NCBI GenBank assembly: GCA_964495255.1
Contig: CAZBVC010000007.1
Coordinates: 274-64,273, forward strand
Direction: 5' to 3'
DNA from: an uncultured Oscillospiraceae bacterium
GTDB lineage: Bacteria > Bacillota > Clostridia > Christensenellales > CAG-138
DNA length: 64,000 nucleotides
Position 1 is the first letter of the stretch. Each line of letters opens with the position of its first letter. Shown piece after piece: positions 20,512 through 64,000 of the stretch. The position numbers were made by a program, and so were the translations under genes. The notes beneath the pieces were generated by a model that searched no databases, was not told where the DNA came from, and saw nothing but the letters and a program-made list of their open reading frames with translations.

Positions 20512-20574
20512 ATCCAAAGAAAGCGCGAGCTCCAAAGAAACCCGGAATAAGGATGTATCGGAGGATGAACCATT

Positions 20575-21111
20575 ATGTTTGAACAGAAATTCAATCGCTT
20601 TTGCGATAAGGTGGTAACGGTGATCAAGGGCTTCACGGGCATCCTCTTACTTGCCATGCTGCTCGTCGTCGTGTTTCAGGTGTTTTGGCGCGGTCTGTTG
20701 AAGCTGCCGACGCCTTGGACGGAGGAAGCCTCCACCTATCTTGTAACTTATATTACGTTTATCGGCGGCATCGCCGTTATGATTCGCGGCGAACACCTTA
20801 CCATCGATCTGGTAACCGAGCATGTATCCGAAAAGATGCGCGCGTGGTTTCAGGTCATCTATTGCGCTGTGTTCCTGTTTGTATGCGGCTATCTGGCGTT
20901 TTACGGCGCGCAGCTTTGCCTGAGTCCCTTGATCTACAAATCCCGTTCCATCGCCATGCAGATTCCCAAGGTCATCGTCTATGCGGTGATGCCGTTCAGC
21001 ATGGGTCTGAGCGTGATCTACAACGTATTCCATCTTTATTTCCTCATCAAACATATCGTAACCGACGGCAAGAAGACGGATCAAGTCGCTGCGGAGAATG
21101 CGGCGGCGTAA
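20575..21111 (+). CDS. dctQ: TRAP transporter small permease (DctQ family)
   Basis: 178 aa, four hydrophobic segments. RBS GGAGGA. Sits between dctP and dctM. Confidence 0.85.
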   Translation: MFEQKFNRFCDKVVTVIKGFTGILLLAMLLVVVFQVFWRGLLKLPTPWTEEASTYLVTYITFIGGIAVMIRGEHLTIDLVTEHVSEKMRAWFQVIYCAVFLFVCGYLAFYGAQLCLSPLIYKSRSIAMQIPKVIVYAVMPFSMGLSVIYNVFHLYFLIKHIVTDGKKTDQVAAENAAA

Positions 21112-21198
21112 AACGCCTTCTGATGGTATGAAAAGCCGCGGCGCCTTCCGTAAATCGCGCCGTTGCAAAACTTAAATATTTTAAGAATGAGGATCATT

Positions 21199-22476: not shown

Positions 22477-22513
22477 CGGAGAAAGCGAAAATTCGGAAAG
22501 GAACTTTTCTCAA

Positions 22514-28394: not shown

Positions 28395-28416
28395 GAAACG
28401 AGAGGGAGCGTGCATC

Positions 28417-29667: not shown

Positions 29668-29708
29668 TTGAACACAGAACTATATTTGACGAAGGAGAGT
29701 ATCAACTG

Positions 29709-49915: not shown

Positions 49916-49945
49916 TTCGGAAGAAAGCACGGAGGAAACGATCAA

Positions 49946-51166
49946 ATGACGCAACTGATTCAAATGAAGACGCCGCTCGTGGAGATGGACGGCGACGAAA
50001 TGACGCGCATCATCTGGAAGATGATCAAGGACGAGCTGCTGACCCCGTTCGTGGCGCTCAAAACCGAATACTATGACCTCGGGCTCACGAAGCGCGACGA
50101 AACGCGCGACCGTATCACGCATGAAGCGGGCGAGGCGAACAAGCGCCTGGGCGTCGGCGTAAAATGCGCAACCATTACCCCGAACGCGCAGCGCATGGAC
50201 GAATACCACCTCCATGAAATGTGGAAAAGCCCGAACGGCACCATCCGCAGCATTTTGGACGGCACGGTATTCCGCGCGCCCATCCTGATCGACTCCATCA
50301 AGCCCGTCGTCAAGAATTGGCATAAGCCGATCACCATCGCGCGCCACGCATACGGCGACGTATACAAGGGAACCGAATACCGCGTACCCGAAAAGGGCAA
50401 GGCGGAGCTGGTGTTCACGGGCGAAAACGGCGCGACCTTCCGCGAGACGGTTTATGATTTCGAATGCCCCGGCGTGTTGCAGGCGATGTACAACAAGGAC
50501 TCCTCCATTCGCTCGTTTGCGCACTCCTGCTTCCGTTACGCGATTGCGACCAAGCAGGATCTGTGGTTTTCCACGAAGGACACGATCTCCAAGAAGTATG
50601 ACCAAACCTTCAAGCTCATCTTCCAGGAGATCTTCGAGAGCGATTACAAAGCGAAATTTGACGAGCTTGGCATCACCTATTTCTACACCCTGATCGACGA
50701 CGCCGTGGCGCGCGTCATCCGCTCCGAGGGCGGTTTCATCTGGGCGTGCAAGAATTACGACGGCGACGTGATGAGCGATATGGTTTCCACGGCGTTCGGG
50801 TCGCTTGCCATGATGACCAGCGTTCTCGTCAGCCCGGACGGAAACTATGAATACGAAGCGGCGCACGGCACGGTTACGCGGCATTATTACCGCTATCTCA
50901 AAGGCGAGGAAACCAGCACGAACCCGATGGCGACGATCTTTGCATGGTCGGGCGCGCTGCGCAAACGCGCCGAGATGGACGAATTGCCCGAGCTGATCCG
51001 CTTTGCGAACCTGCTCGAGGAGAGCTGCATCGACACGCTGAACGACGGCGTTATGACAAAAGACCTCGTCGGGCTTGTCGAGGGCGGTCAAAAACCGACG
51101 GCCGTGACCACGATTGCGTTCATCAAATGCATTCGCGAACGGTTGGAAAAGAAATTGGAGGCGTAA
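49946..51166 (+). CDS. icd: NADP-dependent isocitrate dehydrogenase (eukaryote-like subfamily II)
   Basis: VEMDGDEMTRIIW, KCATITP, GTVFR, NYDGDVMSD, EAAHGTVTRHY. Confidence 0.9.
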   Translation: MTQLIQMKTPLVEMDGDEMTRIIWKMIKDELLTPFVALKTEYYDLGLTKRDETRDRITHEAGEANKRLGVGVKCATITPNAQRMDEYHLHEMWKSPNGTIRSILDGTVFRAPILIDSIKPVVKNWHKPITIARHAYGDVYKGTEYRVPEKGKAELVFTGENGATFRETVYDFECPGVLQAMYNKDSSIRSFAHSCFRYAIATKQDLWFSTKDTISKKYDQTFKLIFQEIFESDYKAKFDELGITYFYTLIDDAVARVIRSEGGFIWACKNYDGDVMSDMVSTAFGSLAMMTSVLVSPDGNYEYEAAHGTVTRHYYRYLKGEETSTNPMATIFAWSGALRKRAEMDELPELIRFANLLEESCIDTLNDGVMTKDLVGLVEGGQKPTAVTTIAFIKCIRERLEKKLEA

Positions 51167-51170
51167 CAGA

Positions 51171-51467
51171 ATGAACATCGTCAAGGCAGGCATGGCGGGC
51201 ACGATGGAATCCAGCGATATCATCGTGCGCGTCGAGCCGCGGGAAGAGGGCGGTCTGACGATCGAGCTTACCTCGAGCGTCAAGCAGCAGTTCGGCAAGC
51301 AGATCGAGCGCGTCATTCGCGAAACGCTTGAAGAGCTTGGCGTAAAGAACGCGTTCGTAGACGCGGTGGACAAGGGCGCGCTGGATTGCACCGTTCGCGC
51401 GCGCACGTCCGCGGCGGTTTACCGTGCGGCGGAATCTGCGGACTATGTTTGGAGGACAAAGGCATGA
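51171..51467 (+). CDS. citD: Citrate lyase acyl carrier protein (gamma subunit)
   Basis: 98 aa. AGTMESSDIIVRVEP carries the prosthetic-group Ser. Confidence 0.85.
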   Translation: MNIVKAGMAGTMESSDIIVRVEPREEGGLTIELTSSVKQQFGKQIERVIRETLEELGVKNAFVDAVDKGALDCTVRARTSAAVYRAAESADYVWRTKA

Positions 51468-52351
51468 ATCGACTCAGAAGAAGCATGCTCTTCGTGCCGG
51501 GCAACAACCCCGGCATGGTACGCGACGCGCATATTTACGGTTCGGACAGCATCATGTTCGATTTGGAGGACTCCGTCGCCATCACGGAAAAGGACACGGC
51601 GCGCTTTCTCGTTTACAACGCGCTCATGTCGCTGCGTTACGGCAAAAAGGAGCTCGTCGTGCGCATCAACGACCTGTCGAGCGGACTCGGCGTAGCGGAC
51701 TTGGAAGCGATTGTTCGCGCCAAGCCGGACGTCATTCGCCTTCCCAAAACCGAATGCGCCAAGGACGTAATCGACTGCGAACGCGAAATCGAGCGCATCG
51801 AGATCGAAGCGGGCATCCCCGTCGGCACAACGGGCATGATGGCGGCGATCGAGAGCGCGCGCGGCGTGCTGAACGCGTTGGAAATCGCCCTGAGCAGCAA
51901 ACGCCTGATCGGCATCGCGCTGGGCGCGGAGGACTATGTCACCGATCTGAAAACCACGAGAAGCGACGGCACGGAGCTGTTCTTCGCCCGCAACATGATT
52001 CTGAACGCGGCGCGCGCGGCGGGCATCGACGCCATCGACACCGTGTATTCGGACGTCAACAACGAGGAGGGCTTCCTCGCGGAGGCGACCCTCATCAAGA
52101 AGCTCGGTTTCAACGGTAAGAGCGTCATCAACCCGCGTCAGATTCCGCCGCTGCATAAGGTATTCATGCCCAGCGAGAAGGATCTGGCAAAGGCGCACGC
52201 GATCATGCAGGCGATCGAGGAGGCGCACGCGCGCGGCAGCGGCGTGATCTCGCTCAAAGGGAAGATGATCGACAAGCCCGTCGTTATGCGCGCGCAGTAT
52301 CTGCTCGAGCTTGCGGAAGCGGCGAGCGTTATGCCGATCGAGGAGGTTTGA
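51464..52351 (+). CDS. citE: Citrate lyase beta subunit (citryl-CoA lyase)
   Basis: RRSMLFVPGNNP, FDLEDSV, PKTE. ATGA overlap with citD. Confidence 0.9.
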   Translation: MNRLRRSMLFVPGNNPGMVRDAHIYGSDSIMFDLEDSVAITEKDTARFLVYNALMSLRYGKKELVVRINDLSSGLGVADLEAIVRAKPDVIRLPKTECAKDVIDCEREIERIEIEAGIPVGTTGMMAAIESARGVLNALEIALSSKRLIGIALGAEDYVTDLKTTRSDGTELFFARNMILNAARAAGIDAIDTVYSDVNNEEGFLAEATLIKKLGFNGKSVINPRQIPPLHKVFMPSEKDLAKAHAIMQAIEEAHARGSGVISLKGKMIDKPVVMRAQYLLELAEAASVMPIEEV

Positions 52352-52355
52352 CAGC

Positions 52356-53882
52356 ATGGATGCAATGAAAATCAAGCACATCGACCGCGTCGCGCAAAAC
52401 GGCGCATTCGCGGGCGTTCCCCAAAGGGACCCGTCAACGTTCTCCGCGCGCATGGGCGCGAGCAAAAAGATCGTTTCGTCCTTGGAGGAAGCGATTCGCC
52501 GCACAGGGCTCAAGGACGGCATGACGATCTCCTTCCATCACCACTTCCGCAACGGCGATTACATCATCAACATGGTGCTCGACGCCATTGCGGAGATGGG
52601 CATCAAGGATCTGACGGTCGCCGCAAGCTCGCTTTCAAGCTGCCATGCGCCGATGATCAAGCATATCCAAAACGGCGTGGTGACGCATATCGAAACGAGC
52701 GGTCTGCGCGGCGAGCTTGCCGAACAGATTTCGCGCGGCTTAATGGATATGCCGGTGATCTTCCGCTCGCATGGCGGACGCGCGGCCGCGATTGCGCGCG
52801 GTGAGCTGCATATCGACGTTGCGTTTCTCGGCGCGCCCTCGTGCGACCCGTACGGAAACGCGAACGGCTATAACCGAGATGCGGAGAACGCGACGATCTG
52901 CGGCTCTATGGGTTACGCCAAGGTGGACGCGCAGTATGCGGACAAGGTCGTCATTCTGACCGACCATATCGTTCGCTTTCCGAACACGCCGTTCGGAATT
53001 CCCGAATCGCAGGTGGACTACATCGTTGCGGTCGAGAGCATCGGCGACCCTTCCGGCATTATGAGCGGCGCGACGCGCTTTACGAAAAATCCGAAGGAGC
53101 TGTTGATTGCCAAGACCACGGCGGACATCATCGAGGCTTCGGGCTATTTCTACAACGGCTTTTCCATGCAGATGGGCAGCGGCGGCGCTTCCCTGGCGGT
53201 TGCCCGCTTCCTGCGCGAGAAGATGGAGACGCAGAAGATCCATGCGCGCTTCGCGCTCGGCGGCATCACGGGGCAGATCGTCGAAATGCACGAGGCGGGG
53301 CTGATCGACAAGATTTTGGACGTTCAGTCGTTCGATTTGATCGCGGCGCAATCGCTCAAAAACAACCGCTTTCATCAGCAGATCGACGGCGCGTTCTACG
53401 CGGCTTACGACAATGCGGGCGCGGCGGTCAATCAGCTCGACTTTGTCGTTTTGTCGGCGCTGGAAATCGACACGGGGTTCAACGTCAACGTTATGACGGG
53501 CTCGGACGGCGTGATTCGCGGCGCGATCGGCGGTCATCCCGATACGGCGGCGGGCGCTTCGCTCTCTATCGTCGTGGCGCCGCTGACGCGCGGCAGGATC
53601 CCGACGATCGTCGAACACGTCAACACGATCGTGACCCCCGGCGCGGCGGTCGATATCGTTGTAACCGATCAGGGCGTTGCGGTCAATCCCGCGCGGCCCG
53701 ACTTGATCGAGAAGCTCACGGCGGCGGGCGTCAGGCTCTTTACGATTGAGGAGCTGCGCGCGCGCGCGGAGCGTCTCGTCGGCAAGCCCGATCCGATCCG
53801 CTATAAGGACAACGTCGTCGGCGTGGTGCTGTATCGCGACAACAGCGTTCTCGACGTGATCCGCGAGATCGATGAGGACTGA
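52356..53882 (+). CDS. citF: Citrate lyase alpha subunit (citrate CoA-transferase)
   Basis: 508 aa. LKDGMTISFHHHFRNGD and collinear CitF body. Confidence 0.9.
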   Translation: MDAMKIKHIDRVAQNGAFAGVPQRDPSTFSARMGASKKIVSSLEEAIRRTGLKDGMTISFHHHFRNGDYIINMVLDAIAEMGIKDLTVAASSLSSCHAPMIKHIQNGVVTHIETSGLRGELAEQISRGLMDMPVIFRSHGGRAAAIARGELHIDVAFLGAPSCDPYGNANGYNRDAENATICGSMGYAKVDAQYADKVVILTDHIVRFPNTPFGIPESQVDYIVAVESIGDPSGIMSGATRFTKNPKELLIAKTTADIIEASGYFYNGFSMQMGSGGASLAVARFLREKMETQKIHARFALGGITGQIVEMHEAGLIDKILDVQSFDLIAAQSLKNNRFHQQIDGAFYAAYDNAGAAVNQLDFVVLSALEIDTGFNVNVMTGSDGVIRGAIGGHPDTAAGASLSIVVAPLTRGRIPTIVEHVNTIVTPGAAVDIVVTDQGVAVNPARPDLIEKLTAAGVRLFTIEELRARAERLVGKPDPIRYKDNVVGVVLYRDNSVLDVIREIDED

Positions 53883-53901
53883 CGGAGGCAAATCAAATCA
53901 A

Positions 53902-53935
53902 ACGGGGTCGTGCGTATGAATGCGACCCCGTTTTT
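53902..53935 (+). terminator. Rho-independent terminator after citF
   Basis: ACGGGGTCG-(12-nt loop)-CGACCCCGT followed by TTTTT. Confidence 0.75.
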
Positions 53936-54003
53936 GGTATGCTGCGCTCGGTTTGCATTTCTGCTTGTCGGATAACGGCTCTGTCGGGAACGGAGGGAAT
54001 CGG

Positions 54004-54981
54004 ATGGAAATCGCAATCAAATACGGTTTGCCGCGCGGAGCGGAGCGCGAAGCTTGGGAGCGCTTCCTCGTTTTGCGGGGGCTCAGACCCGACGCGGACG
54101 TCGAGCGCGTGGCGCTTGCCTATGAGGGCGACCGCCTGGTCGCGTGCGGCGCGCTTTATGGGCGCGTGCTCAAACAGATTGCCGTCGATCCCGCGTTCGA
54201 GGGCGGCGGCGCGTGCGCGTCCGTCGTTTCGGCGCTGGTCGGCGAGGCGTACCTGCTGAACAGAACGCATCTGTTCCTGTTTACGAAGCCCGAAAACGAA
54301 AGGATGTTTGCTTCGCTGGGTTTTTATCCGCTCGCACATACGAGCGACATGCTTATGACGGAGAATCGGCGCCTCGGGCTTTCGTCGTTCCTCGATTCTA
54401 TGGAGCGCTTTGACGGCGTTTGCGGCGCCATCGTCATGAACGCCAATCCGTTTACGAACGGGCATCGCTGCCTTGTCGAATACGCGTCGCGAAATTGCGA
54501 TGCGCTCTATGTGTTCGTTTTGAGCGAGGAGAGCGGTTTCATGCGCGCGGAGGAGCGCGTTTCGCTCGTTCGCGCGGGCACGGCGGATATCGCCAACTGT
54601 CATGTGTACGAAAGCGCGGACTATCTCGTCAGCCGCGCGACGTTTCCGACCTATTTCATCAAGGATGCGGCGCGGCTCGAGGACGCGCGCGCGGAGCTGG
54701 ATCTCGCGCTGTTCGGGCAGAGAATTGCGCCCGCGTTGCATATTCAAAAGCGTTTCGTCGGAACGGAGCCGTTTTGCCGGGTCACGCGCGCATATAACGC
54801 GCAAATGAAGCGGATTCTTCCGCAATACGGCGTTAAGGTCATCGAGATCGAACGAAAGGATAAGATCAGCGCGAGCCGCGTCAGGAAGCTGATGGCGGAG
54901 GGCGATTTGGACGGCGTTCGCGCGCTCGTTCCGAACGCGACATACGAATGGGCGAAGACGCGCCTTACGGGAGCGAAATGA
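54004..54981 (+). CDS. citC: [Citrate (pro-3S)-lyase] ligase
   Basis: GNAT-like N-terminus plus a cytidylyltransferase-like domain, IVMNANPFTNGHRCLVE. RBS GGAGGGA. Confidence 0.85.
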   Translation: MEIAIKYGLPRGAEREAWERFLVLRGLRPDADVERVALAYEGDRLVACGALYGRVLKQIAVDPAFEGGGACASVVSALVGEAYLLNRTHLFLFTKPENERMFASLGFYPLAHTSDMLMTENRRLGLSSFLDSMERFDGVCGAIVMNANPFTNGHRCLVEYASRNCDALYVFVLSEESGFMRAEERVSLVRAGTADIANCHVYESADYLVSRATFPTYFIKDAARLEDARAELDLALFGQRIAPALHIQKRFVGTEPFCRVTRAYNAQMKRILPQYGVKVIEIERKDKISASRVRKLMAEGDLDGVRALVPNATYEWAKTRLTGAK

Positions 54982-55829
54982 GCACGATCGGAATGGACGC
55001 GAAGAATCGAATCGCAACCATGGCATACGACGCGCTTCTATCGGAGGTTTACGCAACGCCGAAGCCGGGGCTCGTCGATCGGAACAACAACGGCGCGCAT
55101 ACGGATATGAACGTTGCGCTCTTCGAGAAAAGCGCCGCGGCGCTGCGACCGTACTTCTTTGAAGCGGTTGGGCTCGGCACGGCGAAAGCGGGGATGCAAA
55201 CGCTGCGAAAGGCGGGCGTTGCGGCGGAACGTGAAATGTTTGCCGCGACGAATGGCGTGAATACGCATAAGGGCGCGATCTACGGCATGGGGCTTTTGCT
55301 CTGCGGCATGGGGCAAACGCTCGCGATGGGCGGCAGCGCGATTGCACACGCGCAAGCCCTTGTTCGCTCCGATCTCGAAAGCGAGCTGTTGCGCGCGAAA
55401 CGGGCGGGGGATACGCATGGCGCGGCGCTGTTGTCCGAATACGGCGTGCGCGGCGCGCGCGGCGAAGCGGCAAACGGGTTTCCAAATGCCGTTCTTTGCA
55501 TGCGCCGCCTGCTGCATTATCGGCAAACGGGCGCGGACAACGCGGAGGCGCTTGCGCTTTGCGATGTGATGGCGTCGCTCGAGGATACGAACCTTTTGCA
55601 TCGCGGCGGAACGGAGGGGCTTTTGTTCGTGCAGGGCGAGGCAAGGCGCATTTCCCGTTTGCCGGAAAGCGAACGCGTTTTCGCGCTTCTGGCGCTGGAT
55701 GCGGAGCTGATTCGCCGTAACCTTTCGCCCGGCGGAAGCGCGGATATGCTCGCGCTGGGTTTGCTGCTTGCGCGCTTTGACGCGTGGGGCGGGTGCTGCG
55801 TTGAAACCGCGGGGAAAACCGACGCATAA
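54978..55829 (+). CDS. citG: Triphosphoribosyl-dephospho-CoA synthase
   Basis: EVYATPKPGLVDRNNNGAHTDM, NTHKGAIY, TNLLHRGG. ATGA overlap with citC. Confidence 0.85.
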   Translation: MSTIGMDAKNRIATMAYDALLSEVYATPKPGLVDRNNNGAHTDMNVALFEKSAAALRPYFFEAVGLGTAKAGMQTLRKAGVAAEREMFAATNGVNTHKGAIYGMGLLLCGMGQTLAMGGSAIAHAQALVRSDLESELLRAKRAGDTHGAALLSEYGVRGARGEAANGFPNAVLCMRRLLHYRQTGADNAEALALCDVMASLEDTNLLHRGGTEGLLFVQGEARRISRLPESERVFALLALDAELIRRNLSPGGSADMLALGLLLARFDAWGGCCVETAGKTDA

Positions 55830-56005: not shown

Positions 56006-56968
56006 ATGGAAACAACAAAGACGGCTAAAAGCGGAAAAGCATATGTGCTTTTGTTCCTCACGTTCTTTTTCTGGGGAAGCGTGTATGTGGTCAGCAAATA
56101 CGCGATGAATACGCTCACCCCCGCGACGGTTGGCTGCTTGCGCTATGCGCTCGCGCTGATTCCGCTGTCGATCCTGTATTTTCGCTCGGAACGCAAAAAA
56201 ATCGAACGGGCGGATTGGAAATATTTCCTCATCATCGGCGGGCTCGGATACTATCTGACGGTGTTGCTCAACATGATCGGCATCGGCTTGGCGGGCGCGT
56301 CCATGACGTCGCTGCTCAACTCGCTGATGCCCGTATCGATTACCATTTTGGCGGCGCTTCTGTTGAAGGAGCGCATCACGCCGATCAAGATTGTCTGCCT
56401 CGTGCTTGCGATCGTCGGCGCGATCATTATTACGAGCGGAGCGGCGGACAAGGGCAGCGTCGTCGGCATTCTGCTCGTGCTGTTCGCGGTGCTGACATGG
56501 AGCTTCGCGTCCGTCACCATGCGCCGCGTCTCGATGAAGTACGGCGCGATCACAACCGCAACCGTCGGCGTCGCCGTCAGCATGGCGCTGCATATTCCGA
56601 CTGCGGTCGTCAGCACGGTGCGCGCGGGCGGGCTTCATTTGACATGGGGCGCGGTTCTCTCGCTCGTATACATGGCGTTTGCCTGCACGGCGCTGGCGCA
56701 GCTTACATGGAACATGAGTCTGACGATGCTGGACGCGAGCACCTGTTCTCTGTTTTACCCGTTACAGCCGCTCTTTTCGGTTCTGCTCGGGTCGATCTTT
56801 TTGAAGGAACGCTTTACGACGAGTTTCTTTATCGGCGCGGCGCTCATCATGGCCGACGTGGTGGTCAACTGTCTGTATCAGGCGAGGAAAGAGAAGCGCG
56901 TGCAAAACTGCGAGGCGAAAGCGGATGCGGAAAAGCCGTCTGCCGAACAGGAAAAATCCGCGTCGTAA
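56006..56968 (+). CDS. DMT-superfamily (EamA) transporter
   Basis: Ten hydrophobic segments forming two EamA-like halves. Charged C-terminal tail. Confidence 0.8.
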   Translation: METTKTAKSGKAYVLLFLTFFFWGSVYVVSKYAMNTLTPATVGCLRYALALIPLSILYFRSERKKIERADWKYFLIIGGLGYYLTVLLNMIGIGLAGASMTSLLNSLMPVSITILAALLLKERITPIKIVCLVLAIVGAIIITSGAADKGSVVGILLVLFAVLTWSFASVTMRRVSMKYGAITTATVGVAVSMALHIPTAVVSTVRAGGLHLTWGAVLSLVYMAFACTALAQLTWNMSLTMLDASTCSLFYPLQPLFSVLLGSIFLKERFTTSFFIGAALIMADVVVNCLYQARKEKRVQNCEAKADAEKPSAEQEKSAS

Positions 56969-57007: not shown

Positions 57008-57892
57008 TTACAGCTCCTTGGAGCGCATCACGGCATATTCCCAAAAACGTTCCACGGGCGGCGTCATATAGCGCCCCTTGTGCTTCAAGATGCCGATGTC
57101 GCGCGTCATCTTCGGCTCGGAGAACGGGATGAGCTTGACGTTATAGCTGTCCAAAACGGGGATATGCGGCAGAATCGCAAGCCCGATATCCGCCGCGACG
57201 AACGCCGCGATGGAGCTGCATTCGTCCACCTCGAACACGATGCTCGGGGCGACGTTTGCCTCGCGGAAGCGCGCTTCGAGCTGGCGATACATGGCGGTGT
57301 TGTGATTGATGGAAACGAGCTTTTCATGCGCGATGTCCGAAAGCGAAACGACGTCGCGCTCAAACAGCGGGTGCTTTTCCGACACGGCGAGAAACAGCTC
57401 CTGCCGCATGATCGGCACATAGTCGATGTCGTCGATATCGGGCTGGGCGGAGAAAACGACGTCAAGCGAGCCTTCGAGCAGCCGCTCGATGAGCAGCCCC
57501 GTCATGCTTTGCTGAAAGCGAAACTGGATCTGGCGATTTCCCTGATGCAGATAGAAGCGCTCCACGAACTTTGGCATGACCTTGAAGCCGACGCTGTAAA
57601 TATAGCCGAGGTTGATCGTTCCGCCCGTCGGGTCTACCATTTCAAGCAGCTTGGCCTCGCCGCGGGACAGCTCCGCGAGCGCATTTTTTGCATAGGGCAG
57701 AAAAGCGGCGCCGTAAACGGAAAGCCGCGTCTGTTTGCCGACGCGTTCAAACAGCGGGACGCCAAGCTCCTTTTCCAGCTCGCTCAATGAATAGCTGAGA
57801 CTTGGCTGCGAAATATAAAGCATGCTGGCCGCCTTCGTATAATGAAGGACTTCGGTCATCACGCAAAAGTAGCGAAGCTGCTGCAACGTCAT
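57008..57892 (-). CDS. LysR-family transcriptional regulator
   Basis: MTLQQLRYFCVMTEVLHYTKAASMLYISQPSLSYSLSELEKELG HTH. GGAGG 8 nt upstream of this ATG. Confidence 0.9.
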   Translation of the reverse strand: MTLQQLRYFCVMTEVLHYTKAASMLYISQPSLSYSLSELEKELGVPLFERVGKQTRLSVYGAAFLPYAKNALAELSRGEAKLLEMVDPTGGTINLGYIYSVGFKVMPKFVERFYLHQGNRQIQFRFQQSMTGLLIERLLEGSLDVVFSAQPDIDDIDYVPIMRQELFLAVSEKHPLFERDVVSLSDIAHEKLVSINHNTAMYRQLEARFREANVAPSIVFEVDECSSIAAFVAADIGLAILPHIPVLDSYNVKLIPFSEPKMTRDIGILKHKGRYMTPPVERFWEYAVMRSKEL

Positions 57893-58074
57893 AGGACAGA
57901 CCTCCATTTGGCAAAACAGGGCGAATCATTCTCTTTTTTTCACCATATCACATTCCGACAAAAAGGTCAACGAAGGGGAACGACGAAAAAAAGAATCCAT
58001 GCGTTTTTGGACGATTCCGAACGAATCGCGTCGGCTTGATAAAGCGCTTCTATGAATTCAATCAAAAAACTGTA

Positions 58075-58105
58075 TTGGACAACGCAAATTTACGATGCGT
58101 ATAAT
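58075..58105 (+). promoter_or_regulatory. Candidate promoter of the HMGL-like/ThDP/TIM/AroE-like operon
   Basis: TTGGAC (58075-58080), 19-nt spacer, TATAAT (58100-58105). The spacer is longer than optimal. Confidence 0.3.
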
Positions 58106-58202
58106 CAATTATAACCTGTTCACATATTGATTGCAATTTCCCAAGTAATTTCGCAAATACGGCGCTGTTTTGCTCGAATCGGATACAAAAGAGGTGTTTA
58201 TC

Positions 58203-59150
58203 ATGCAACTTCCAAGCTCCGTGACTTTGTGCGAGGTCGGTCTGCGCGACGGCATTCAAAACGAAAAGGAGATTTGGCGTACCGAGGATAAGATCGAGCT
58301 TGCAAAGGCGGCGATCGACGCAGGCTTTCGCGTTATCGAGCTCGGTTCGTTCGTCAGCCCGAAGGCGGTTCCGCAGACGGCGGATACGGACGCGCTGTTT
58401 GCCGCGCTGGGCGACGTTTCCGGCGTTGAAAAACGCGCTCTGATCGCGAATCCGCGCGGCGTGGAGCGCGCGATTTCATGCGGCTGCAAGAAGGTCAAGC
58501 TGAACGTTTCCGCAAGCCGCGCGCATAACCTCGCAAACCTCAACATGACGCCCGAAGAAAGCGTAGCCAAGTTCGCCGCCTGCACGCAGCTTGCCGCGGA
58601 AAACGGAATTGAGGTTTCCGGCTCGATTTCCATGCCGTTCGGCTCGCCTTGGGAGCGCGACATTCCCTTTTCGGACGTCTGCTCGATCATCGAGGCGTAT
58701 CTTGCCGTAGGCGTAACCGAAATTTCCCTTTCGGACGCGTCCGGCATGGCGACGCCTTCCCGCGCATACGACATGTATACGCTCGTCGCCAAACGGTATC
58801 CCGATGTGAAATGGTGGCTGCATTTTCACAATACACGCGGTATGGCGATGGCGAACATCGTTGCCGCGATGACGGCGGGCGCAACGCGCTTCGATTCGTC
58901 GTTTGCGGGTCTTGGCGGCTGCCCGTTCGTTCCGGGCGCGGCGGGCAACGTCGCGACGGAGGACGTTCTTCATATGCTGGACGAAATGGGCGTTGCAACC
59001 GGCGTCGATCTGCGCAAGTGCATACAAATCGCCAAGCGCGCCGTGGACGTCGTCGGGCATAGCACCGACAGCTATATTTTGCGCGCGGGCCCGTCCTGCG
59101 ACCTGATCCGCGAATTACCCACCAAACAGACGCTTCCCGCCAAAAACTGA
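58203..59150 (+). CDS. HMG-CoA-lyase-like (HMGL-like family) C-C lyase
   Basis: LCEVGLRDGIQNEK N-terminal motif, HFHNTRGMAMAN metal site, GLGGCPF. Confidence 0.85.
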   Translation: MQLPSSVTLCEVGLRDGIQNEKEIWRTEDKIELAKAAIDAGFRVIELGSFVSPKAVPQTADTDALFAALGDVSGVEKRALIANPRGVERAISCGCKKVKLNVSASRAHNLANLNMTPEESVAKFAACTQLAAENGIEVSGSISMPFGSPWERDIPFSDVCSIIEAYLAVGVTEISLSDASGMATPSRAYDMYTLVAKRYPDVKWWLHFHNTRGMAMANIVAAMTAGATRFDSSFAGLGGCPFVPGAAGNVATEDVLHMLDEMGVATGVDLRKCIQIAKRAVDVVGHSTDSYILRAGPSCDLIRELPTKQTLPAKN

Positions 59151-59269
59151 TTCCTTCCCTATAACAAACCTTTGCGCGCGAAACTCGCGCAAGCGAAAAA
59201 CCGAACACCGCTGTCCACACGGCTGAAAACGAATTTTCCACGAATTTACGGAACACAGAGGTAAATGCA

Positions 59270-61087
59270 ATGAAGAAGCTAGTTTCCGAACTGATGGTGA
59301 ACTATCTCGAACGGCGCGACGTCAAGTATGTCTTCGGTCTTTGCGGACATACCGTCATCGGCTTTCTCGACGCGCTCGCGCGAAGCGAAAAGGTCAAGTA
59401 TATCTCCGTGCGGCATGAGCAGATCGCCGCGACTGCGGCGGACGGGTACGCCCGCCTGACCAAGAAAGCGTCCGTCGTGCTTTGCCACTTGGGGCCGGGG
59501 ATTACGAACACGGTAACGGGCGTGGCGAACGCTGCGTTCGACTCGATTCCCATGGTCGTCATCGCGGGCGACGTGCCCAGCTACTATTACGGCAAGCATC
59601 CGCATCAGGAAGTCAATATGCATTGCGACGGCTCGCAGTATGACATCTTGAAGCCCGTCGTCAAGCGCGCGTGGCGCATCGACGATCCCGAAGCGCTGCC
59701 CGATATTCTGGACAAGGCGTTCCGTCTTGCCGAAAGCGGCAGACCGGGCCCTGTGCTCATCGACGTGCCGATGGATATGTTCTCGCGCATGATCGACGAG
59801 GAGCTGTTTGCCCGCACCTATCGCGACAGCGGCGAGACGATTAAGCCCGCGCTTGCGCCGAACGCGGCGAAGGCGATCGCCAAGCGGCTTTGCGAGGCGA
59901 AAAACCCGCTGATTCATGCGGGCGGCGGCGTGCTGATTGCGTCTGCGAGCGAGGAGCTTGCCGCGCTCGCCGAGTTTTTGGATATTCCCGTTTCCCGCAC
60001 GCTGATGGGGCAGGGCTGCATCAGCGACGCGCATCCGCTCATGGTCGGGCAGACGGGCTTTTGGGGACTGGAATTTACGCATCGGCTCACCACGGGCGCG
60101 GACGTTATTCTTGCGCTCGGTACGCGCTTTGCCGAGGCGGACAGTTCAAGCTGGTATCCCGGCGTAACGTTCGACCCCGCAAAGACGACCTTCCTGCAAA
60201 TCGATATTGATCCCGCGGAGCTCGGGCGCAACTATCCCGTCGAGATCGGCGCGGTTGCGGATCTGAAATTCGCGCTTGCGCAAATTTTGGAAGAGGCAAA
60301 AAAGCTCTGCCCGAACGGCATGAACCGCCCCGCGCTGAGAAAGCTGATTGCGGAAAATAAGGCCGCGTTCAAGGCGTCCAACGTCGATATTTCCAACGAC
60401 GGCAGGTTCCCGATGACGCCGCAGCGCATCCTGCGCGACGTAAAGGAAACGATTCCCGCAGACGCGATTATTTTTACCGACGTCGGTTGGAACAAGAACG
60501 GCGTTGCGCAGCAGTATGACATTACCGTTCCCGGTACGATTCATCATCCGTCGGGGCTCGCCACGATGGGCTTTGGCGCGTCCGCCATATTGGGCGGCAA
60601 GCTCGCAAAACCCGACAAGGTCGTTTTGACGCTCGTCGGGGACGGCGGGTTCGGGCAAAATCCGTCCTCGCTCGCCACGGCTGTGGAGCAGGGCATCAAC
60701 GTGATCTGGGTCGTGATGAACAACTCTGCGTTCGGCACGATTGCGGGGCTCGAATCCGCCAACTATGGAACCAAGTTCGGAACCTTGTTCCAAACGCCCG
60801 ACGGCGAGAGCTATTCGCCGAACTGGGCGGAGGTCGCGAAAGCATACGGCGTCGAGTCGGTTCGCATTACGTCCGCAGACGAGTTCAAGCCGGCTTTGGA
60901 GCGCGCAATCGCCGCTAACGCACCGTTTTTGATCGACGTTCCGATGGAGAACATCGTGGTGCCGACGCCGGGCTGCTGGAACATCAACGACATCTATTCG
61001 CCAAAGGCAAACATTTCGGAGGGCAAGGTGGTGCCCAATGCGGACGGAACCTATACGCCGCCGACGCACGCCAAATCGCATCAATAA
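59270..61087 (+). CDS. Thiamine-diphosphate-dependent enzyme (acetolactate synthase-like superfamily)
   Basis: VRHEQ cofactor-activating Glu, and the ThDP motif GDGGFGQ...VVMNNSAFG. 605 aa, with a C-terminal extension. Confidence 0.85.
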   Translation: MKKLVSELMVNYLERRDVKYVFGLCGHTVIGFLDALARSEKVKYISVRHEQIAATAADGYARLTKKASVVLCHLGPGITNTVTGVANAAFDSIPMVVIAGDVPSYYYGKHPHQEVNMHCDGSQYDILKPVVKRAWRIDDPEALPDILDKAFRLAESGRPGPVLIDVPMDMFSRMIDEELFARTYRDSGETIKPALAPNAAKAIAKRLCEAKNPLIHAGGGVLIASASEELAALAEFLDIPVSRTLMGQGCISDAHPLMVGQTGFWGLEFTHRLTTGADVILALGTRFAEADSSSWYPGVTFDPAKTTFLQIDIDPAELGRNYPVEIGAVADLKFALAQILEEAKKLCPNGMNRPALRKLIAENKAAFKASNVDISNDGRFPMTPQRILRDVKETIPADAIIFTDVGWNKNGVAQQYDITVPGTIHHPSGLATMGFGASAILGGKLAKPDKVVLTLVGDGGFGQNPSSLATAVEQGINVIWVVMNNSAFGTIAGLESANYGTKFGTLFQTPDGESYSPNWAEVAKAYGVESVRITSADEFKPALERAIAANAPFLIDVPMENIVVPTPGCWNINDIYSPKANISEGKVVPNADGTYTPPTHAKSHQ

Positions 61088-61105
61088 AAAAGGGGGTACT
61101 GTTTC

Positions 61106-61927
61106 ATGGCGCGAACCTATTCGCTGGCTTATTTGACGATACCGGGCACGACGCCCGTCGATCAGATCCGCATCGCGGCGGAGGCGGGGTACGATTGCGT
61201 GAGTCTGCGCACGATTCCCATGCATCTGCCGGGCGAGCCGCTGTTCCTCTTTGAAAAGGACAAAGCGCTTTTTGCCGACGTGAAGCGGGCGCTTTCGGAC
61301 TACGGCGTCAAGTATAACGACATGGAGCTTGCGCGCGTGCGCGAGGATCTGAACGTTCGCGATTACGAACCTGCGTTTGCCGCCGCGGCGGAGCTTGGCA
61401 CGCGCAACATTCTTTCCTCCGTTTGGACGGAGGATAAGCCCTATCGCGAGGAGCAGTTCGGGATGATCTGCGACATGGCAAAGCGGTACGGCATGACCGT
61501 GAATCTCGAATTCATGTCGCTTTCGGGCGTTCGTGATCTTGCCGCCGCGCTGGAACTCAGAAACGCGGTTCGACGCGACAACGTGAAGCTCGTTGTGGAT
61601 TTGCTGTATGTGCTGCGTTCGCAGATCCCGATTGCGGAGCTGAGCAGCCTTACGGCAAACGACGTGGGCTTTATTCATCTTTGCGACGGCCCCGCCAATA
61701 TGCCTCGGCTTTCCGTGGAGGACGCTTTTACCATCGTGCGCGAAGCGCGGCTGTATATCGGCGAGGGGGATATCGACGTCAAGGGCATTCTGAACGCGCT
61801 TCCCAAGGCGCCGTTCTCCATCGAACTGCCAAACGCGAAGGAAGTCGCTTCACGAGGCGCTGCGGGTCATGCCGCTCGCTGCCTCGAAACGGCCAAGGCA
61901 TATATGCTGAAAAACGGAATCGATTGA
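61106..61927 (+). CDS. Xylose-isomerase-like TIM-barrel protein (sugar phosphate isomerase/epimerase/dehydratase family)
   Basis: 273 aa with the alternating beta/alpha pattern typical of this fold, NLEF and HLCD metal-site-like motifs. Confidence 0.7.
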   Translation: MARTYSLAYLTIPGTTPVDQIRIAAEAGYDCVSLRTIPMHLPGEPLFLFEKDKALFADVKRALSDYGVKYNDMELARVREDLNVRDYEPAFAAAAELGTRNILSSVWTEDKPYREEQFGMICDMAKRYGMTVNLEFMSLSGVRDLAAALELRNAVRRDNVKLVVDLLYVLRSQIPIAELSSLTANDVGFIHLCDGPANMPRLSVEDAFTIVREARLYIGEGDIDVKGILNALPKAPFSIELPNAKEVASRGAAGHAARCLETAKAYMLKNGID

Positions 61928-61959
61928 CGACACAGAATCAGGATAGGAGGAACGAGACA

Positions 61960-62829
61960 ATGCCCGTGGATATCAACACCAAGATGATCGCCCTTTTGGG
62001 CAAGCCGCTCTCGCAGTCGTTCGCGGCGCGCATGCAAAACGCCGCCTACCAAGCCAGCGGGCTGAACATGCTGTACTTTTATACCGAGGTGGAAAACGAT
62101 CGCCTTGGCGACGTGATCAACGGCATTCGCTATATGCCGTTTGCCGGCTTTGCGGTTACGAAACCCAACAAGGTCGAGGTGCTTCGCTATTTGGACGAGC
62201 TTGACCCGCTTTGCGAAAAGATGGGCGCGAGCAACACGGTCGTCATCCGCGACGGCAAGCTGATCGGCTATAACACCGACGGCGTCGGTTTTCTGATCTC
62301 GCTCGGGGAAGAGACGGACGTTCGGATTCCCGAAACAACGTTCTTCTGCACGGGCGCAGGCGGCGCGGGACGCGCCATTTGCAGCGTGATCGCTTATCAC
62401 GGCGCGAAGAAGATCTATATCTGCGATTTGTACGAAGCCGCGGCTCGCGAACTGGTTGACGACATCAACAAGAATTTCGCGCCCGTTGCGGAATTTGTGC
62501 CGTTTGCCGACACGACCTTGAAAACCGAAAAGATTCAGGCGTCGGACTTTATCATCAACGCAACCGGGCTCGGCATGGCGAGCACGGCGGATCAAACGCC
62601 GTATCCCAAGGAGATTCTCTCGCCGAAACAGATCTGCTTCGACGCGACGTATAACCCCCAAAAGACGCGTTTCTTAATCGAGGCGGAGGAGGTCGGCTGC
62701 AAGATCATGAACGGGCTGGGTATGTCGCTGCATCAGGGCGCCGCGCAGATCAAGCTGTGGAGCGGAAAAGACGCGCCCGTTGACGTCATGCGGGAAGAAT
62801 TGTTCGCGATCCTTGCCGAAAAGAACTAA
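61960..62829 (+). CDS. Shikimate/quinate dehydrogenase family protein (AroE/YdiB-like)
   Basis: 289 aa from MPVDINTK (RBS AGGAGG). GFAVTKPNK, YNTDGVGF, GAGGAGRAI motifs. Confidence 0.85.
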   Translation: MPVDINTKMIALLGKPLSQSFAARMQNAAYQASGLNMLYFYTEVENDRLGDVINGIRYMPFAGFAVTKPNKVEVLRYLDELDPLCEKMGASNTVVIRDGKLIGYNTDGVGFLISLGEETDVRIPETTFFCTGAGGAGRAICSVIAYHGAKKIYICDLYEAAARELVDDINKNFAPVAEFVPFADTTLKTEKIQASDFIINATGLGMASTADQTPYPKEILSPKQICFDATYNPQKTRFLIEAEEVGCKIMNGLGMSLHQGAAQIKLWSGKDAPVDVMREELFAILAEKN

Positions 62830-62889
62830 ATCGACGTGCGGTTTGCGCCGTATGTACCGATATCTCAGAATAAGGGAGGAGAGAAACGA

Positions 62890-63471
62890 ATGAAAGTCAT
62901 CAGATGGCTGGATGACCATTTCGAAGAGGTTTTATTGGTCGTCTTCCTCGTAGCGATCACCATCGTCAGCTTTTTGCAGGTGGTCATACGAAAACTGCCT
63001 TGGATTCCCGCCCTGACGTGGGCGGAGGAGTTTTGCCGATTCGCGTGGATATGGAGCGTGTTCCTTTCGCTGCCATATACCATCAAGCGCGGCAATATGC
63101 TTCGCGTCACCGTGCTGCTTGACGCAATGCCGACGACGATTCGCAAATGCCTGAATATCTTTGTGGATTTGGTCAATCTTGCGGTCATGACGCTGCTGTT
63201 CTACTATGCCATCCCGCTCGTGCGCGACCGCTTTATCAGCGCGGAAACCTCGCCCGCCATGCTTTGGCCGATGTGGGCGATCTACGCTTCCATGCTGCTC
63301 GGCTTTGGGCTCGCGACCTTCCGCGCCATACAAGCGCTGGTCGTACACATCAAGCAATTCGGCGAGAAGCCGCTGACCACGATCGAGCAGACCATGCAGG
63401 CAGCGGAGGAAGAGCTCGCCGCGGCGCAGGCTGCGGAAGGCGTCGAACCGACAAAGGAGGGTGAGAACTAA
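62890..63471 (+). CDS. dctQ: TRAP transporter small permease (DctQ family)
   Basis: 193 aa from MKVIRWLDDHFEE (RBS GGGAGGAG). Four hydrophobic segments. Confidence 0.8.
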   Translation: MKVIRWLDDHFEEVLLVVFLVAITIVSFLQVVIRKLPWIPALTWAEEFCRFAWIWSVFLSLPYTIKRGNMLRVTVLLDAMPTTIRKCLNIFVDLVNLAVMTLLFYYAIPLVRDRFISAETSPAMLWPMWAIYASMLLGFGLATFRAIQALVVHIKQFGEKPLTTIEQTMQAAEEELAAAQAAEGVEPTKEGEN

Positions 63472-64000
63472 TGGCTGCATTACTTGTTTTCCTTGTGTTC
63501 CTGGTTGCCATCGTTATCACCATTCCGATCGGCGTCGCTATGGTGCTCGGCTCCGCCGCGCCGATTCTGCTTCTCGAAAAGGGCGGATCGATCATTCAGG
63601 TGCTCAACAACACCTTTTCGGGCGCAAACTCCACGCCGATTCTCGCCGTTCCGCTGTTCATTCTCGGCGGCGTCATCATGGCGGAGGGCGGAATCTCGCG
63701 CAGGCTGTTCAATTTCTTCGCGTACTTTGTCGGCAAGGTCAAGGGCGGTTTACCCTGCGCCTGCATCCTGACCTGCCTGTTCTACGGCGCGATTTCCGGC
63801 TCCGGCCCCGCGACGACCGCCGCCGTCGGCTCGATGTGCATCCCGTTCCTTGTGGAGCTGGGCTATGATCGCCAATGGAGCGCGGGTCTGGTTTCCGTTG
63901 CGGGCGGGCTCGGCGTCATCATTCCGCCGTCGATACCCTTCGTGCTGTATTCGCTCGCCACCGGCGTTTCAACGGGCGACCTGTTCCTTGGCGGCGTGCT
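63471..64000 (+). CDS. dctM: TRAP transporter large permease (DctM family), 5' part; runs off the window
   Basis: Absent from the ORF track because the frame has no stop inside the window. My translation from ATG 63471 (TAATG overlap with dctQ) reads MAALLVFLVFLVAIVITIPIGVAMVLG...AVPLFILGGVIMAEGGIS...GAISGSGPATTAAVGS. Confidence 0.85.
   Translation, partial: MAALLVFLVFLVAIVITIPIGVAMVLGSAAPILLLEKGGSIIQVLNNTFSGANSTPILAVPLFILGGVIMAEGGISRRLFNFFAYFVGKVKGGLPCACILTCLFYGAISGSGPATTAAVGSMCIPFLVELGYDRQWSAGLVSVAGGLGVIIPPSIPFVLYSLATGVSTGDLFLGGV

Follow-up and report, generated by a model that had tools for sequence, protein, structure and literature searches.

The question raised by this locus is which acid is taken up and degraded by a gene cluster near the end of a 64,000-nucleotide stretch of DNA from an uncultured Oscillospiraceae bacterium (contig CAZBVC010000007.1; this whole stretch is hereafter the window), and how a carbon ring might be opened by its enzymes without oxygen. 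The cluster comprises a divergent LysR-type regulator and co-directional genes for an enzyme resembling 3-hydroxy-3-methylglutaryl-CoA (HMG-CoA) lyase, a thiamine diphosphate (ThDP)-dependent enzyme, a xylose-isomerase-like TIM barrel, a shikimate-dehydrogenase-family protein (SDH) and TRAP transporter subunits. An earlier reading of these genes, made from the sequence alone (the sequence-only reading), had proposed that a quinate/shikimate-type carbocyclic acid is oxidised, dehydrated, opened by ThDP chemistry and split at the tertiary carbinol of C1. In the present analysis, it is judged somewhat more probable than even that the cluster is an operon controlled by a QuiR-type LysR regulator, by which strict anaerobes would be enabled to ferment quinate (and also shikimate, if they have a dehydroquinase) without aromatisation and by a route leading to acetyl-CoA and 2-oxoglutarate.

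The open reading frame (ORF) map and the Pfam and NCBIfam scans agreed with the sequence-only reading in gene content, coordinates, gaps and ThDP motifs. A genome collection was scanned with the ThDP protein, which gave 262 confirmed relatives; 80 loci with 74-82 % identity were retained, the window proteins were mapped onto them, and all locus ORFs were clustered. In the 32 loci with full flanks (at least 8 kb on both sides), the TIM barrel and the LysR regulator were each present in 28/32, a CoA-acylating aldehyde dehydrogenase (ALDH) and the SDH each in 26/32, the HMGL-like lyase in 25/32, the TRAP genes in 19/32, a type I dehydroquinase (AroD) in 11/32 and an EamA transporter in 8/32. The loci come from at least four phyla, and among the hosts of the ThDP orthologues are uncultured Clostridia and Oscillospiraceae, Oscillibacter valericigenes (two copies), Pseudoflavonifractor, Faecalispora, Lutispora, Anoxynatronum, Clostridium symbiosum, Acidaminococcus, a Fusobacterium metagenome-assembled genome (MAG) and Synergistota (Fretibacterium, Synergistaceae). 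The gene order differed among loci, as in HMGL-ALDH-ThDP-TIM-SDH-QMP, TIM-SDH-QMP-EamA|LysR-ThDP-x-HMGL and ALDH-AroD-HMGL-ThDP-TIM, and was shuffled between Clostridia, Acidaminococcus, Fusobacterium and Synergistota; a Synergistes contig carried LysR|ALDH-HMGL-ThDP. Because the content was kept while the order was shuffled, functional coupling is indicated rather than common descent of one contig. The recurrence of the gene set around ThDP orthologues in 80 loci, beyond chance, bears out the neighbourhood conservation that the sequence-only reading had named as a check. The operon is genuine and is conserved widely among anaerobes of guts and digesters. Moreover, the proteins of these loci differed in their identity to those of the window, with 74-82 % for the ThDP enzyme, 36-59 % for the TIM barrel, 45-73 % for the SDH and 48-72 % for the lyase. 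That the ThDP enzyme is so unusually conserved across Bacillota, Fusobacteriota and Synergistota points to a strong constraint, to a recent horizontal transfer of its gene, or to both.

The two ThDP orthologues in the complete genome of O. valericigenes (AP012044.1) lie at separate sites (L041 and L044) with 77 % identity each; one is accompanied by HMGL, TIM, SDH and EamA genes, and the other by LysR genes only, with a TIM-barrel gene 4 kb off. The MoxR/VWA genes, which were considered as further members of the cluster, look like unrelated neighbours in Oscillibacter-type genomes.

Regarding the substrate, the SDH gene (61960..62829, + strand; Pfam Shikimate_dh_N and SDH_C) encodes a protein with both SDH domains that passes the TIGR00507 model (213.7 against a cutoff of 200.2). 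Its solved relatives are 1nvt (1e-53), Listeria 3tnl as second best (1e-51), YdiB (1e-45) and 5-ketofructose reductase 7cok (6e-39). The catalytic K/N/D motifs are readable and the shikimate-site motifs are kept. In addition, Asp156 ends strand beta-2 of the Rossmann fold, as in 34/50 orthologues; an acidic residue at this place is the standard rule for preference of NAD+, which is the cofactor of the catabolic SDH members, and the protein is on this ground assigned to the NAD type. These features indicate a putative NAD-type quinate/shikimate dehydrogenase converting quinate to 3-dehydroquinate and shikimate to 3-dehydroshikimate. Furthermore, a 255-residue type I 3-dehydroquinase, AroD, was found in 14/82 loci, often within the operon (TIGR01093, 247 bits against a cutoff of 139), for example in the arrangement ALDH-AroD-HMGL-ThDP-TIM of loci L035 and L038. 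The regulator (57008..57907, - strand; Pfam HTH_1 and LysR_substrate) has as its best solved relative the effector-binding domain of Lmo0488 (5TED, E 2.5e-30), with BenM at 2e-22 and full-length BenM/CatM well behind. The 5TED protein is QuiR, the shikimate-dependent activator of the Listeria qui operons (bioRxiv 10.1101/2025.04.08.647683). The cluster LysR is thus likely a QuiR-type regulator with shikimate or quinate as its effector.

Together with the relatives of the TIM barrel described below, the NAD-type SDH, the embedded AroD and the QuiR-like LysR are four independent lines that point to quinate or shikimate as the probable substrate class. The class named in the sequence-only reading has in this way gained support from comparative genomics. 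The same reading would have been weakened by aromatic amino-acid biosynthesis genes accompanying the cluster; no such genes were found to flank it within the window.

From the gene set, its conservation, the protein families, the catalytic residues and the links to quinate and shikimate, we infer the substrates, the order of steps and the products as follows. The TRAP system DctPQM, possibly with EamA, would import the acid, and the NAD-type SDH would oxidise quinate to 3-dehydroquinate. Shikimate would be oxidised by the SDH to 3-dehydroshikimate and rehydrated to 3-dehydroquinate by the type I dehydroquinase, which lies in the operon of many relatives; this entry would explain both the presence of AroD in the operon and the need to keep the tertiary C1 alcohol of dehydroquinate. 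The metal-dependent TIM barrel would then remove the C4 proton and the C5 hydroxyl to give 1-hydroxy-3,4-dioxocyclohexane-1-carboxylate. Elimination of this type, with a C4 proton and a C5 hydroxyl, is the first chemical step of dehydroshikimate dehydratase and of IolE. The ThDP enzyme is proposed to attack C3 and to hydrolyse the C3-C4 bond, in a manner like that of IolD and cyclohexane-1,2-dione hydrolase (CDH), yielding homocitrate semialdehyde, OHC-CH2-C(OH)(COO-)-CH2-CH2-COO-. This aldehyde would be converted by the CoA-acylating ALDH, with NAD+ and CoA, to homocitryl-CoA, and the HMG-CoA-lyase-like enzyme would cut at the tertiary carbinol that had been C1, releasing acetyl-CoA and 2-oxoglutarate. 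The predicted net reaction is quinate + CoA + 2 NAD+ -> acetyl-CoA + 2-oxoglutarate + 2 NADH. In a sub-variant, the TIM barrel would be an IolI-type isomerase that moves the carbonyl to C4, and a ThDP cleavage like that of phosphoketolase or Xsc would eliminate the C5 hydroxyl, so that the same ring-opened product would result.

The order of the steps is constrained by chemistry. The ALDH would act after ring opening, because an aldehyde arises only then, and the lyase would follow the ALDH, as it needs a CoA ester; the ring opener would therefore be the ThDP enzyme, on a ring possibly prepared by the TIM barrel. The carbon balance is 7 = 2 + 5, and homocitrate semialdehyde has the formula of 3-dehydroquinate, C7H10O6, of which it is an isomer. 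Since every conserved enzyme is used and none is lacking, this appears to be the most economical scheme, and the logic of the sequence-only reading (oxidation, dehydration, ThDP opening and cleavage at the C1 tertiary carbinol) is still the most parsimonious one for the predicted chemistry. The C-C bond that would be cut in the last step is the one formed by homocitrate synthase, another member of the HMGL-like superfamily. Acidaminococcus, C. symbiosum and Fusobacterium are classical fermenters of the 2-hydroxyglutarate pathway, in which 2-oxoglutarate is converted to acetate and butyrate. Moreover, fermenting bacteria are reported to degrade quinate and shikimate to acetate and butyrate without aromatic intermediates (Brune and Schink, Arch Microbiol, 1992). 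The products of the proposed scheme match this report.

The ThDP enzyme (59270..61087, + strand; 605 residues) contains all three Pfam TPP domains (TPP_enzyme_N, M and C). Its translation shows RHEQ at residues 48-51 and a GDG-X24-NN motif, which place it in the POX/acetolactate-synthase superfamily. It scored below the cutoff of every NCBIfam model listed; the best scores were those of acetolactate-synthase models, with 392.7 against 538.35 for TIGR00118 and 398.8 against 866 for PRK06276, and an IolD model was absent from the best 25 of 54 matches. Among solved structures, BbmA came first (2e-87), followed by acetolactate synthases with 7e-77 at best, and CDH (2pgn, 3e-46) was at rank 46 among the 60 listed. 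The sequence-only reading had left it to this comparison whether the enzyme is closer to IolD and CDH or to acetolactate synthase; the NCBIfam and PDB scores put it nearer to the latter and rule out an orthologue of IolD or CDH. A biosynthetic acetolactate synthase is also ruled out, on the scores below the equivalog cutoffs and the lack of a small subunit. No small regulatory subunit, with which the sequence-only reading would have been at odds, adjoins the ThDP gene, whose neighbours are the HMGL-like and TIM genes, and no ilv genes were found in the ORF map of the window. Against 1.84 billion representatives at 50 % identity, only two full-length proteins matched with 54-59 % identity, the next were at or below 42 %, and the bulk of the superfamily was at 32-36 %. 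Because of this fall in identity from 54-59 % to at most 42 %, the enzyme is regarded as a tight, separate acetolactate-synthase-like clade. Its proposed function is that of a ring-opening C3-C4 hydrolase or lyase that gives an aldehyde.

The TIM barrel (61106..61927, + strand) was recognised by Pfam AP_endonuc_2 only and matched no NCBIfam model. Its AF2 model (pLDDT 93.4) was compared by Foldseek with solved structures, and the matches, within a TM range of 0.76-0.83, included Lmo2234 (0.83), IolI (0.80), which was third behind both Lmo2234 chains, and QuiC1 (0.77), with IolE at rank 45. The identity to solved relatives was 16-22 %, and 21-22 % to Lmo2234. A profile search of the PDB gave Lmo2234 at 7e-16, IolI at 2e-14, QuiC1 at 2e-6 and AsbF at 4e-4; IolE was not detected in it. 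The putative metal site consists of E135, D165 and H191, all three invariant, and of E240, which at least 90 % of the sequences share. The sequence-only reading had asked whether this protein is closer to IolE, AsbF or QuiC; by structure it is nearer to IolI and the dehydroshikimate dehydratases than to IolE. The gene lmo2233 (QuiR2) is divergent to the Listeria qui2 operon (bioRxiv 10.1101/2025.04.08.647683), so that lmo2234 would be the first gene of that operon; we could not confirm Lmo2234 as the published QuiC2 dehydratase. A function of the TIM barrel as a stand-in for dehydroquinase was ruled out, because at least 10 loci have both AroD and the TIM barrel. The protein is proposed to be a 3-dehydroquinate 4,5-dehydratase or, alternatively, an IolI-type keto-isomerase.

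Several observations weigh against the scheme as drawn. The ThDP enzyme is not specifically related to the known ring-cleaving hydrolases, and its nearest solved relatives are carboligases. The fold cannot separate a TIM-barrel dehydratase from an isomerase or epimerase, with IolE only at rank 45, and the proposed diketone could aromatise spontaneously to protocatechuate. In L004 and L015, two full-flank loci of the Christensenella type, the arrangement is LysR|ALDH-AroD-HMGL-ThDP and a TIM barrel was not found within 10 kb; the SDH-family gene near this module is probably a housekeeping aroE, because a gene for EPSP synthase follows it. Locus L007 carries TIM|LysR-ThDP-AroD beside trpE/trpG, with no ALDH or lyase found nearby, and the Fretibacterium loci hold a ThDP-ALDH pair only, among housekeeping genes. 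Furthermore, two recurrent genes have no place in the scheme. One, in 13 loci (e.g. L066:4999-6183), encodes a Gfo/Idh/MocA oxidoreductase. The other, in 10 loci, encodes a protein of the phosphoenolpyruvate (PEP)-mutase/isocitrate-lyase family; in Acidaminococcus it lies between the ThDP and HMGL genes, and its best model is methylisocitrate lyase (176 bits against a cutoff of 354). These odd loci and extra genes keep alive direct acyloin cleavage or another role of the TIM barrel.

In a route of direct acyloin cleavage, no dehydration would precede ring opening. The ThDP enzyme would cleave the C3(=O)-C4(OH) acyloin of 3-dehydroquinate to a dialdehyde by retro-carboligation, the TIM barrel would be an aldose-ketose isomerase acting on the open chain, and the ALDH and the lyase would yield acetyl-CoA and a C5 hydroxy-dioxo acid. 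Such an acid, for example 5-hydroxy-2,4-dioxopentanoate, would be split to pyruvate and glycolate rather than giving 2-oxoglutarate. Acyloin cleavage is the reverse of the reaction of the carboligases that are the nearest solved relatives of the ThDP enzyme; isomerisation is canonical in the TIM-barrel family, in which IolI was the third structural match; and loci L004 and L015 keep AroD, ALDH, HMGL and ThDP without a TIM barrel. The route nevertheless requires an extra hydrolase or aldolase, none of which is conserved in the loci, its end products are not central metabolites, and it leaves unexplained the enrichment of the cluster in fermenters that use 2-oxoglutarate. It is therefore considered unlikely.

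The HMGL-like gene (58203..59150, + strand; Pfam HMGL-like 2e-48) and the ALDH gene encode the enzymes that would complete the non-aromatising route to acetyl-CoA and 2-oxoglutarate. The HMGL-like protein passes NCBIfam PRK05692 (301.3 bits against a cutoff of 246) and matches the HMG-CoA lyases of the PDB at 1e-64 to 1e-58. The equivalents of R41, D42, E72, H233, H235, C266 and N275, which we take to be the catalytic residues of human HMG-CoA lyase, are invariant in 51 HMGL orthologues; because all are kept, a CoA thioester is the expected substrate. No liu, mcc or HMG-CoA synthase genes were found as neighbours in the window or in the 80 loci, so that the lyase does not stand in an HMG-CoA context. 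The enzyme is proposed to be a lyase of a 3-hydroxy-3-carboxyacyl-CoA, "homocitryl-CoA", releasing acetyl-CoA and 2-oxoglutarate. The cleavage at a tertiary carbinol that the sequence-only reading had assigned to this protein is thus kept, with the change that a CoA thioester made by an acylating ALDH is most likely what is cut.

The ALDH gene lies beyond the window, on contig L001 (L001:7454-8920), which was found by an exact-protein look-up and comes from the same organism, as it is 100 % identical to window 62000-64000 over 2001 nt. In NCBIfam, the protein scored 441 bits with SauS (below the 600 cutoff), 330 with the N-terminal half of AdhE and 286 with EutE, and it is the equivalog of no named member; the catalytic-cysteine motif GSGCSADGN is intact. 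In 30/55 cases, the ALDH and ThDP genes are no more than 300 nt apart, and the ALDH of the window organism shares 81 % identity with the copy in the Lutispora operon. By its family scores and its motif, the enzyme is of the CoA-acylating type and is the predicted source of CoA activation in the cluster. The sequence-only reading had expected that a CoA ligase or transferase might lie past 64000; no conserved one was found beyond the window end or in the 80 related loci, and the gene for CoA activation that does lie there is the acylating ALDH.

A different use of these two enzymes may be envisaged, in which the HMGL-like protein is a retro-aldolase acting on free 3-dehydroquinate. It would give 3,7-dideoxy-hepto-2,6-diulosonate in a reversal of the last step of dehydroquinate synthase, after which the ThDP enzyme would decarboxylate the 2-oxo acid and the ALDH would form a C6 acyl-CoA. 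Indeed, 3-dehydroquinate is a beta-hydroxy-ketone at a tertiary carbinol and thus formally an HMGL-type motif, the superfamily has aldolases that do not act on CoA esters (the DmpG-type models matched at 1e-18 to 1e-19), and acetolactate-synthase-like enzymes begin by decarboxylating a 2-oxo acid. This explanation is held to be quite unlikely, for the lyase scores above the HMG-CoA-lyase cutoff and keeps the residues of a CoA-ester lyase, including the equivalent of Cys266; moreover, 3,4-dihydroxy-5-oxohexanoyl-CoA would need thiolase or aldolase steps that were not found in the loci, and no role would be left for the TIM barrel.

It may also be asked whether the ring is opened at all. In a Listeria-type qui system, the SDH, a dehydroquinase and the TIM barrel, as a dehydroshikimate dehydratase, would form protocatechuate for export, for example by EamA, and the ThDP enzyme, the ALDH and the lyase would be an unrelated module, adjacent by chance. 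Three proteins, the LysR (QuiR 5TED), the TIM barrel (Lmo2234) and the SDH (3tnl), do find some of their best solved matches in the Listeria qui regions, many loci have two transcription units, TIM-SDH-TRAP and ThDP(-HMGL), and Listeria produces but does not use protocatechuate (bioRxiv 10.1101/2025.04.08.647683). Chance adjacency is opposed by the interleaving of the genes in one operon, both in the window (HMGL-ThDP-TIM-SDH-TRAP, with gaps of 18-119 nt) and in many relatives, and by the co-occurrence in 25-28/32 loci across phyla. In addition, the TIM barrel shares no more than 21-22 % identity with Lmo2234, and a ThDP enzyme goes unmentioned for the Listeria system in 10.1101/2025.04.08.647683, whose text lacks the words "thiamine" and "acetolactate". 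This explanation was rated as very unlikely.

A shade less probable still is the import of some other acid, for instance a keto-sugar acid or another cyclitol carboxylate, on which the SDH would act like 5-ketofructose reductase. That reductase belongs to the SDH family (7cok, 6e-39), and the solved TRAP binding proteins are too distant to tell the ligand (the best, at about 1e-35, being of the SiaP type). Moreover, the IolG-like Gfo/Idh/MocA protein of the 13 loci, which shows weak similarity to IolG and levoglucosan dehydrogenase, occurs without an SDH on the short Faecousia/Oscillospiraceae contigs L032, L053 and L059, and it may be an alternative, iol-like dehydrogenase. These observations are countered by the type I dehydroquinase in the operon in 14 loci, by the QuiR-like regulator, and by the SDH, which satisfies the aroE domain model and in which the motifs of the shikimate site are retained. 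Finally, a biosynthetic role, with the ThDP enzyme as acetolactate synthase, the SDH as housekeeping AroE or the module reversed toward 3-dehydroquinate, is highly improbable, since the top NCBIfam matches of the ThDP enzyme and the aroE-aroA and trpE/trpG genes beside the modules of L004 and L007 are outweighed by ThDP scores below all acetolactate-synthase equivalog cutoffs, the absence of a small regulatory subunit and of ilv/aro genes from the window, the TRAP uptake genes and divergent LysR of the operon, the NAD type of the SDH and the thermodynamic implausibility of reversing a diketone hydrolysis.

The gene set that the non-aromatising route would use extends beyond the genes listed by the sequence-only reading, and belongs to a cluster reaching EamA upstream and dctP and the ALDH downstream. 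The gene of the EamA/DMT-family membrane transporter (56006..56968, + strand; Pfam EamA 7e-43) is counted as part of the cluster because its orthologues lie between dctP and the LysR gene in 22/82 loci; the protein may serve either import or export. The TRAP genes in the window encode the small membrane subunit DctQ (62890..63471, + strand; Pfam DctQ 2e-29) and the large membrane subunit DctM (63471..64000, + strand; Pfam DctM 5e-39), which is cut by the window end. The system is completed on L001, where the full DctM has 428 residues and is directly followed by the gene of the lipoprotein DctP (L001:5043-6161), which has a lipobox signal peptide. The sequence-only reading had noted the lack of a dctP in the window and supposed that it might lie past 64000, as it does. 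One opposite-strand gene for a flavodoxin-like/4Fe-4S protein (L001:6384-7172, - strand) comes between dctP and the ALDH gene, which begins 1.3 kb past dctP and is flanked by a gene for a DUF362/4Fe-4S protein (L001:9056-10201, + strand). These two proteins are a possible candidate redox partner of the ALDH, and most loci are without them. A Fretibacterium locus likewise has a DUF362 gene (L042:5282-6283), at a distance of about 4 kb from its ThDP gene.

The ligand of DctP could not be read from the solved TRAP proteins, of which the best, of the SiaP type at about 1e-35, covered part of the protein only. In Acidaminococcus (L054, L055 and L056), two consecutive SDH-DctQMP sets were observed, possibly one for quinate and one for shikimate. 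The loci without TRAP genes carry a 488-residue multi-pass membrane protein (L020:6607-8073), an AEC/Mem_trans protein (L084:15891-16829) or an ABC system with a family-5 binding protein (L004:15835-21520). The peptide-type ABC and AEC-family genes, examined as extra conserved members, look like alternative transporters. As other transporters take the position of the absent TRAP genes, uptake appears modular.

Within the operon, the gaps between the HMGL, ThDP, TIM, SDH and DctQ genes are 119, 18, 32 and 60 nt, followed by an overlap of 1 nt between DctQ and DctM. The HMGL-like gene starts with the ATG at 58203 behind the ribosome-binding site AAAGAGGTG, and the mechanical ORF begins at TTG 58170. 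A promoter-like site at 58076..58105 (+ strand; TGGACA-18-TATAAT, 11/12 consensus matches), recognised by its consensus match alone, lies about 100 nt 5' of this ATG in the 295-nt divergent intergenic region and is a candidate promoter of the catabolic operon.

Directly upstream of the cluster lie genes for aconitase (47672-49915) and isocitrate dehydrogenase (49946-51166), followed by the citrate lyase genes citE (51386-52351), citF (52311-53882), citC (53920-54981) and citG (54948-55829). This block (47672-55829) is one of citrate utilisation and can deliver 2-oxoglutarate too, beside a cluster predicted to do likewise. Elsewhere in the window (28375-30884 and 19300-23791), a homologue of the lactate racemase LarA lies beside malic enzyme, and, going by the sizes and N-termini of ORFs alone, there seems to be a second TRAP-type block. 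A Christensenella MAG has the ALDH-AroD-HMGL-ThDP module beside aroE-aroA (L004:13196-15368), and in another MAG, the ThDP and AroD genes stand beside trpE/trpG (L007:5613-7710); these neighbours are possible links between salvage and catabolism of quinate and shikimate.

To our knowledge, no genes or enzymes have been assigned to the non-aromatic fermentation of quinate and shikimate, and we know of no described homocitryl-CoA lyase. In a full-text literature search, no paper with the term "homocitryl-CoA" was found, and no description of the pathway or of the gene set was found in the full texts within reach, which leave out subscription-only papers. The back end of the cluster, consisting of the ThDP enzyme, the acylating ALDH and the HMG-CoA-lyase-like enzyme, has no counterpart described in quinate metabolism. 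At its fullest, to which we give a little less than an even chance, the reading is that of a complete and undescribed oxygen-independent, non-aromatising pathway to acetyl-CoA and 2-oxoglutarate, which is horizontally spread and feeds a butyrate/acetate fermentation of the 2-hydroxyglutarate type. Its four proposed new activities would be a 3-dehydroquinate 4,5-dehydratase, a new clade of ThDP-dependent ring-cleaving hydrolases, a CoA-acylating homocitrate-semialdehyde dehydrogenase and a homocitryl-CoA lyase. The horizontal transfer would have involved Clostridia, Negativicutes, Fusobacteria and Synergistota of guts and digesters.

Quinate, supplied by the chlorogenic acids of coffee, fruit and forage, ranks with shikimate among the most abundant alicyclic acids that reach guts and anoxic sediments. 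With the cluster, a definite set of genes is at hand for testing, together with a proposed route into central metabolism that is complete in its chemistry; the set is carried by cultured gut species of Oscillibacter, Acidaminococcus and Faecalispora and by C. symbiosum. If the pathway is true, the set would be a marker for the production of short-chain fatty acids from dietary polyphenols and would represent a further fate of quinate, in competition with the formation of benzoate and hippurate from it. New reactions would be added to the ThDP, HMGL-like and xylose-isomerase-like superfamilies, and a reversible homocitryl-CoA lyase might be of use in pathway engineering.

Among known systems, the proposed route resembles the catabolism of myo-inositol by IolG, IolE and IolD, in which NAD-dependent oxidation to a ketone, metal-dependent dehydration by a TIM barrel to a 1,2-diketone and ThDP-dependent hydrolysis to an aldehyde-acid follow one another; the TIM fold and its E-D-H-E metal site are common to the cluster TIM barrel as well. 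However, none of the three cluster enzymes is orthologous to IolG, IolE or IolD. The dehydrogenase is a Gfo/Idh/MocA protein in the iol system and an SDH-family protein in the cluster; the cluster TIM barrel is nearer to IolI and the dehydroshikimate dehydratases, and its ThDP enzyme is like acetolactate synthase rather than IolD. Downstream, the kinase and aldolase of the iol system contrast with the acylating ALDH and the predicted HMG-CoA-lyase-like cleavage of the cluster. The CDH of Azoarcus shares with the ThDP enzyme its superfamily, its three-domain architecture and the proposed type of reaction, namely the hydrolysis of an alicyclic 1,2-diketone to an oxo-acid, but it is only a distant relative (E 3e-46).

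The cluster lyase, for its part, keeps the catalytic residues of HMG-CoA lyase and passes the subfamily model, whereas its surroundings are not those of leucine, ketone-body or isoprenoid metabolism, and in its proposed substrate a carboxylate replaces the methyl group of HMG-CoA. The reaction proposed for it would be the reverse of the condensation of acetyl-CoA and 2-oxoglutarate catalysed by homocitrate synthase. The aerobic route of QuiA/QuiB/QuiC or QsuD/QsuC/QsuB with the beta-ketoadipate pathway also has a quinate/shikimate dehydrogenase, a dehydroquinase and a TIM barrel of the dehydroshikimate-dehydratase fold; in contrast, it aromatises to protocatechuate and relies on ring-cleaving dioxygenases, whereas the hosts of the cluster are strict anaerobes and no dioxygenase, decarboxylase or benzoyl-CoA-type genes are present in the cluster. 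The front end of the cluster, with its regulator, SDH and TIM barrel, is similar to the qui1/qui2 system of Listeria monocytogenes (QuiR, QuiR2, YdiB/SdhD, AroD and QuiC2), which has quinate and shikimate as its input and a LysR regulator, and which provides the best solved relatives of the cluster LysR (5TED) and TIM barrel (Lmo2234) and the second best of the SDH (3tnl). Listeria stops at protocatechuate, whereas the cluster adds a ThDP enzyme, a CoA-acylating ALDH, an HMG-CoA-lyase-like enzyme and a TRAP importer, and the added module of ThDP enzyme, ALDH and lyase therefore argues for cleavage of the ring rather than its aromatisation.

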